Source: Harriotta raleighana (lineage: Eukaryota). From it: a stretch of DNA of 64,000 bases. Below, piece after piece: positions 46,322 to 46,735 of the stretch. The notes below the pieces were generated by a model. That model ran no database searches and was not told where the DNA came from. It saw nothing but the letters and a program-made list of their open reading frames with translations. The stretch lies in contig JBNZDD010013689.1 of assembly GCA_050575255.1 (NCBI GenBank), positions 948,841-1,012,840 on the forward strand, written 5' to 3'. How positions within the stretch are numbered: position 1 is the first letter of the stretch; each line of letters opens with the position of its first letter. Position numbers and translations under genes: made by a program.

Positions 46322-46735
46322 TCAGACGGGATCACCGCACGGTTTCGCACCGTACGACCCCGGGTCGGCCCCGCGGCAGGAAAACCGTCCGTCTCTCCTC
46401 CTCTCCCTGTCGGGAAACACTGCGCGAAGCCGCGGAGGCTCGAACTCCCGAACAGCGGCGGAGGAGGAGGAGGAGGAAGAGAGGGGTTTCTGCCTGGGGT
46501 CGATGTCAGGAACAACAGCAACAACAGCCTCGGCCGGGAGCGACGCGAACGACTTTCCGGATCCCGAGCTACGTTTTCCCAGCGTGAGGATCCCGGCGGC
46601 GTGGTTCCCGGAGCCGTGCAGGAGTTCGTAAAGTTGACATCGACATTTCCTCCGGGAACAGCAGCCGGGAAAGCTCCTGGTCTCCGGGAGAGCGAACAGC
46701 AGCATCCCGACCAGCAGCAAGACTTTGCTCACAGC
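46322..46735 (-). CDS. Prepro-orexin/hypocretin-like precursor, exon 2 (signal peptide core, orexin-A-like peptide, GKR, C-terminal extension)
   Basis: Acceptor ctctctccag|GCT; AVSKVLLLVGMLLFALPETRS-FPGCCSRRKCRCQLYELLHGSGNHAAGILTL-GKR. The CC-x4-C-x-C spacing is the same as in orexin-A, and LYELLHGSGNHAAGILTL differs from human orexin-A by one residue (A>S). HCRT family is clear, but paralog identity is unresolved, so no symbol is given. Confidence 0.93.
   Translation of the reverse strand, partial: AVSKVLLLVGMLLFALPETRSFPGCCSRRKCRCQLYELLHGSGNHAAGILTLGKRSSGSGKSFASLPAEAVVAVVPDIDPRQKPLSSSSSSSAAVREFEPPRLRAVFPDRERRRDGRFSCRGADPGSYGAKPCGDPV

Follow-up and report, generated by a model that had tools for sequence, protein, structure and literature searches.

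Why does an orexin gene of the chimaera Harriotta raleighana lack orexin-B? Orexin is a wakefulness and appetite peptide, and its canonical vertebrate precursor (HCRT) carries orexin-A and orexin-B in tandem. The window analyzed here, a stretch of 64,000 nucleotides, presents on its minus strand an open reading frame with one orexin-A-type peptide, a GKR site, and a tail of 82 residues. We consider that this gene is likely HCRT2, the hypocretin paralog from genome doubling, with one orexin-A-type peptide, GKR, and an unconserved tail. Its predicted product is a single amidated peptide with two disulfides, for the one orexin receptor found in the genome.

The two-exon model has 150 residues (Table 1). 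Its second exon encodes 137 of them and the stop, and a short first exon is also present in the canonical orexin gene of this genome. The gene belongs to the Pfam Orexin family (PF02072, 63.4 bits against a cut-off of 22.6), and the match covers only residues 1 to 57 of the query, exon 2. Within the model, no other 11-residue stretch is as hydrophobic (mean 3.05) as the core of the putative signal peptide. The mature peptide matches the orexin-A structures 1WSO and 1R02 of the PDB (E about 7e-13; 6.6e-13). Its last 18 residues share 17 with the human-type record P0091, and the other HCRT2-type or fish precursors compared share 12 to 15 of 18. The G-K/R-R site is kept in 5/5 aligned single-peptide precursors. 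In the ESM Atlas, the best match was a hypocretin cluster at 0.93, followed by other neuropeptide precursors, and no match to the tail was found. Judging from its sequence, the gene appears to have what characterizes the orexin family: a four-Cys A-type peptide, the C-terminal motif, a signal region, and a Gly-dibasic site.

Following established prohormone biology, the signal peptide would be cleaved before Phe and a convertase would cut at KR. The Gly would then serve for amidation, the cysteines would pair as in orexin-A, and the tail would be disposed of. The released HCRT2 peptide would act on the one orexin receptor found in the genome.

Table 1. Positions of the window gene, its parts, its neighbors, and the related genes of the same genome.
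Feature	Position	Strand	Basis or remark
Coding exon 1 (predicted)	47572..47610	-	13 codons from ATG, then GTAAGT donor, phase 0
Coding exon 2, HCRT2-type precursor	46322..46735	-	preceded by pyrimidine tract and CAG acceptor; Pfam Orexin E 2.5e-17
Hydrophobic part, predicted signal peptide	46673..46735	-	hydrophobicity; aligns with relatives
Predicted mature peptide, 31 residues, orexin-A type	46580..46672	-	CC-x4-C-x-C and C-terminal orexin motif
GKR, glycine amide donor and dibasic cleavage site	46571..46579	-	sequence; relatives
C-terminal propeptide, 82 residues	46325..46570	-	low-complexity, unconserved, without orexin-B
RERRR and 23-residue end, two Cys 12 apart	46325..46408	-	second peptide of the sequence-only reading; no support
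RERRR site	46394-46408	-	sequence
23-residue end with two Cys	46325-46393	-	sequence
Stop codon	46322-46324	-	sequence
Candidate polyadenylation signals ATTAAA, AATAAA	45519..45553	-	sequence scan; ~0.8 kb beyond stop
Exact 116-base duplicate of 46639-46754	46766..46881		beyond N at 46765; second splice acceptor copy
TYW5 (C2orf60) exon, neighbor	31558..31737	+	PDB 3AL5, E 2.5e-21
C2orf69 exons, neighbor	55236..58223	-	Pfam PF10561, E 8.2e-85 and 0.0037
Canonical HCRT gene	L002:732-752 and 1444-1725 (G000:C13467)		both exons open
OX2R-type receptor gene	G000:C13710:1109828-1131906 (L032-L034, L025)		first exon not located

A sequence-only reading of this DNA had translated the tail after GKR exactly (46570-46325, minus strand) and reported that orexin-B was missing from it. 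A motif scan and a profile search of all tail frames agree. The six frames of the window contain just one motif of the NHAAG/GILT type, with no second unit. An orexin-B HMM built from 91 distinct orexin-B peptides reported no domain in the three tail frames, hence no frameshifted orexin-B was detected. As controls, the same HMM gave 63.3 bits for C. milii and 35.6 bits for the degenerate orexin-B of the canonical gene of this genome. Over the window and its 100 kb flanks (164 kb around the gene), it matched only the A-type unit itself. Nor was there a trace of orexin-B in five other HCRT2-type tails (best domain -0.4 bits). The window gene does not have the tandem of orexin-A and orexin-B that defines canonical HCRT.

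An assembly gap does not explain this absence. The sequence from 46322 to 46764 contains no N, so there is no gap after GKR in which a B unit could lie. A single N is located at 46765, inside the gene and upstream of the peptide's end. The two 116-base copies around it differ only in the G-rich intron run that follows, and the duplicate is likely an unmerged assembly overlap. Duplicates of at least 30 bases flank 7/13 single-N places in the window. Duplicated flanks of 32 to 1250 bases are present at the N joins of positions 14209, 19030, 21104-21113, 25057, 29560, 31121, 39837, and 46765. With so many joins of this kind, a sequence duplicated locally in this assembly is best regarded as a probable artefact.

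To which gene does this precursor correspond? We searched the genome with the window peptide, the Pfam family, and the C. milii precursor, and each search yielded two real orexin loci. The second locus (L002, contig C13467, about 239.4-240.4 kb) carries two orexin units. Weak matches on other contigs had E values of 0.05 and above, and the one inspected (L004) was noise. The order at the window locus, flanks included, is SPATS2-like, TYW5, orexin, C2orf69, FTCD_N, SATB, and PLC-like. On C13467, it is STAT (184 kb), GH3 (202 kb), PLC-like (225-228 kb), orexin (240 kb), and PAS and ion-channel exons (250-258 kb). The Pfam scans of neighbors covered 150/503 window frames, and 150/158 and 150/160 filtered flank frames. 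We take HCRT to sit inside the stat5-ghdc-plcl5-kcnh4 block. The window neighborhood presumably matches the human 2q33 gene order, both C2orf names coming from our own matches. A stat3-stat5-ghdc-plcl5-kcnh4 block is common to human, mouse, and gar, according to the available part of PMC13398235. The locus on C13467 occupies this canonical HCRT neighborhood (STAT, GHDC, PLCL, KCNH), and the window gene lies outside the STAT5-GHDC-PLCL-KCNH4 block. Intronless-type PLC-like paralogs are found on both orexin contigs, and a third contig has SATB and PLC-like with no orexin match. This pattern would agree with blocks made paralogous when the vertebrate genome doubled.

Two other observations concern these neighborhoods. 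A GC-rich exon at window 25129-25632, on the minus strand and head-to-head with TYW5, has no Pfam match; it presumably resembles MAIP1 (C2orf47). In the PLC-like gene near canonical HCRT (L007:4988-8552, C13467 225-228.5 kb), the PH domain is in a separate frame that overlaps the 1041-residue EF/X/Y/C2 frame. The split could be a frameshift or a short intron.

The second hypocretin gene of this genome, that of the window, thus probably lies on a paralog of the HCRT block. A paralogous chromosome block is what it shares with the HCRT2 of Furlong and Seong 2017 (PMC5207463). Their Table 1, which draws on Yun et al. 2015, tabulates HCRT and HCRT2 as post-2R members, without sequence, architecture, or species in that part. 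We infer that the window gene matches this name. A full-text literature search, which left most subscription journals outside, returned no description of a one-peptide vertebrate orexin paralog; papers on HCRT2 or on the gar and shark genomes may already describe it. The terms HCRT2, shark, and spotted gar are absent from the main text of PMC10987541, and the available portions of PMC5818035 and PMC8302630 contain nothing on HCRT2.

A full HMMER search gave 42 matches. Four of them were distinct single-peptide vertebrate precursors, from paddlefish (Polyodon XP_041116246), gar (Lepisosteus XP_015214290), cloudy catshark (Scyliorhinus GCB75871), and bamboo shark (Chiloscyllium GCC27540). Further searches provided those of sturgeons (Huso KAK6485235, Acipenser XP_033865126 and KAK1165838). 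Canonical two-peptide records co-occur in paddlefish, sturgeons, gar, and both sharks, that of the catshark being incomplete. Other one-unit records among the 185 collected proteins were left out. Some are canonical genes of mammals, birds, and fishes with incomplete or odd models, and others are snake precursors that the pattern did not recognize. When the two shark sequences served as queries, no further shark HCRT2 record emerged from 487 candidates; besides the queries, the orexins returned were two from teleosts. The first profile search was lossy, with neither shark input among its best 120 of 229 matches. No chimaera record of HCRT2 type was among the database matches listed. Separately, two database precursors, P0084 and P0085 (the latter of the star-nosed mole), have five and three orexin units, respectively. 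These extra units could be further internal duplications or assembly artefacts.

The tree was made on a short alignment (26 rows, 55 columns). A branch at 97/98 splits 17 canonical rows from the other nine, 6 of them single-peptide and 3 from amphioxus. The six form no resolved clade, with amphioxus among them in the free tree, and a constraint on their monophyly was not rejected (p-AU 0.351). From their sequences, the single-peptide genes of gar, sturgeon, and sharks are putative orthologs of the window gene.

The window gene shares with canonical HCRT the signal region, the CC-x4-C-x-C peptide, the C-terminal orexin motif, GKR, and two coding exons. On the other hand, the canonical gene has orexin-B and adjoins GHDC/KCNH4, in contrast to TYW5/C2orf69 in the window. 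The peptides also differ in their start. That of the window begins with Phe two residues before the spacer of the first Cys pair, and the canonical one with a Gln-type extension. Compared with the HCRT2-type records, the C-terminus of the window peptide is nearer to human-type orexin-A, and its tail does not have the C-x7-C of sturgeons. Amphioxus (B. japonicum AYA73845) and Ciona resemble the window gene in having one Cys-containing peptide, GKR, and an unrelated tail (PMC10987541, in the part available). The amphioxus peptide begins with F-P-x-C-C, like those of the window, gar, and sturgeon, and has 8 of its last 18 residues identical to the window peptide. However, the invertebrate chordates do not have the paralog pair, and the tails are unrelated.

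The sequence-only reading had proposed either a loss of orexin-B or a form informative about the state before the internal duplication. The second idea survives in part, for a one-peptide form may inform on the pre-duplication state. Nevertheless, the gene is not the canonical one minus orexin-B but a paralog, with single-peptide copies in sharks, gar, paddlefish, and sturgeons.

Among the records compared, the single-peptide layout is probably ancestral rather than the product of a loss. As these records include no cyclostome precursor, they give no polarity to the gain or loss of orexin-B. Orexin-A and orexin-B arose via internal duplication, and invertebrate chordates have one peptide (PMC10987541, available part). 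By parsimony, orexin-B would have been gained in the canonical gene only, after the split of the paralogs. HCRT2 would then retain the older one-peptide layout, as in amphioxus and Ciona. The other possibility, which we regard as rather unlikely, is that orexin-B predates the genome doubling and that HCRT2 lost it early, when sharks and bony fishes had not yet split. The residues after GKR, small ones and then a Phe, bear by eye a loose resemblance to the beginning of orexin-B. The C-x7-C tail motif of canonical and of sturgeon and paddlefish HCRT2 precursors points to some common tail ancestry. A divergence of 450 million years could also erase a remnant. However, this history requires a gain and an early loss where one gain suffices, and the HMM finds no remnant in three window frames or in five other tails. 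The Phe-x-x-Cys-Cys start is common to amphioxus and 5/6 single-peptide vertebrate rows, which are grouped with amphioxus across the 97/98 branch. We prefer the ancestral layout for the single gain, for the one-peptide F-P-x-C-C precursor of amphioxus and the Phe start, and for the lack of a B remnant in the five tails.

Could the tail release another product? The sequence-only reading had proposed a second bioactive peptide of 23 residues and one disulfide, freed by cleavage at RERRR. We find this highly improbable. A furin-type site and two Cys do exist in the tail. Other fish precursors also have tails with Cys pairs, as have the two Ciona precursors (available part of the PMC10987541 supplement). 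However, the window tail does not align among its single-peptide relatives. The R-x-K/R-R site is present in 0/7 HCRT2-type records, two of which are versions of the gar protein. These seven tails have 4, 4, 4, 1, 1, 0, and 2 Cys, the unalignable shark tails having 0 and 2. RERRR is encoded by an AG-only run and R-x-K/R-R arises in 14.1% of 20,000 tail shuffles, so the site is weak evidence. With two Cys after it, the frequency falls to 4.7%, the single figure that favors the second peptide, although for a feature chosen after seeing it. Finally, the Cys pair of the window is C-x12-C, and the conserved spacing is C-x7-C.

This Leu-rich C-x7-C motif lies near the C-terminus in HCRT of shark, gar, bowfin, lungfish, coelacanth, amphibian, and mormyrid, and in sturgeon and paddlefish HCRT2. 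It is present in 13/182 collected precursors, 12 of them alike. The records that share it are canonical (P0001, P0014, P0056, P0069, P0094, P0095, P0125, P0164, P0176) or of HCRT2 type (P0093, P0123, P0179). We built a profile on 8 canonical copies, with which the tails of paddlefish and sturgeon beat nearly all shuffles (10-16 of 2000 as high). The window tail did not rise above background in any frame (1035-1397 of 2000 as high). The motif may predate the paralog split. We also considered the window tail as a frameshifted remnant of the sturgeon tail, for which there is a four-residue match (CETV) in another frame near the stop. It was rejected as unproven. A frameshift-aware alignment reached a score of 23, where shuffles averaged 24 and 94/150 dinucleotide shuffles were as high, in a shuffle control made for one of three queries.

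A further reading, in which the window gene is canonical HCRT and its orexin-B either disappeared in this lineage or is masked by an assembly error, is very improbable and largely refuted by synteny. In its favor, the 17/18 human-type C-terminus exceeds every other fish precursor compared, and an assembly join lies inside the gene. Against it, the canonical neighborhood already has a two-peptide gene, sister to C. milii HCRT at 99/96, a position that would place the genome among chimaeras. Moreover, the join precedes the peptide's end, and the 164 kb around the gene yielded no B unit.

The canonical gene itself shows substitutions of interest. Its branch length is 0.63, compared with 0.025 for C. 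milii HCRT. The A-type peptide retains Cys 1 and 3 without Cys 2 and 4, and CC with four Cys is kept in 147/149 collected two-unit precursors. In orexin-A, the second and fourth Cys pair with each other (PMC10987541, available part). The B unit ends in GEA, with the stop five codons on and no amidation signal; G-K/R-K/R follows orexin-B in 156/157 precursors compared. These changes, as read from the assembly and not from reads, are substitutions and not indels, in an exon without N. No intact orexin-B was found in the genome searched. So read, the canonical gene is possibly decaying. The paired loss of Cys may equally reflect continued selection on a simpler peptide.

We found one orexin receptor locus, of OX2R type. 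The next-best match had 37% identity, and no second orexin receptor was detected among 104 scored candidates in the genome. In other species, a type-1-like orexin receptor of gar is given in the available part of the PMC10987541 supplement, and PMC7365868, in the text available, calls OX1R mammal-only.

The window gene is likely a member of a named but little-described paralog. Two things give it value, the amphioxus-like architecture and the chance that the canonical gene is decaying. What seemed a loss of orexin-B becomes a story of paralogs. If cyclostomes agree, the duplication that gave orexin-A and orexin-B would be dated to one of the two copies from genome doubling. In reviews, in the parts available, fishes have a single orexin gene with two peptides, so a second ligand may be overlooked in work on shark, chimaera, gar, and sturgeon. 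Antibodies to human orexin-A would likely also detect the HCRT2 C-terminus. More speculatively, HCRT2 might be both a living record of the gene before orexin-B and the main orexin source here, its active end still nearly human while the canonical gene decays, in a system without amidated orexin-B and with one receptor. If the decay of the canonical gene is true, this lineage would be a natural test of the dispensability of orexin-B and of the takeover by a paralog in a system that governs sleep and feeding.
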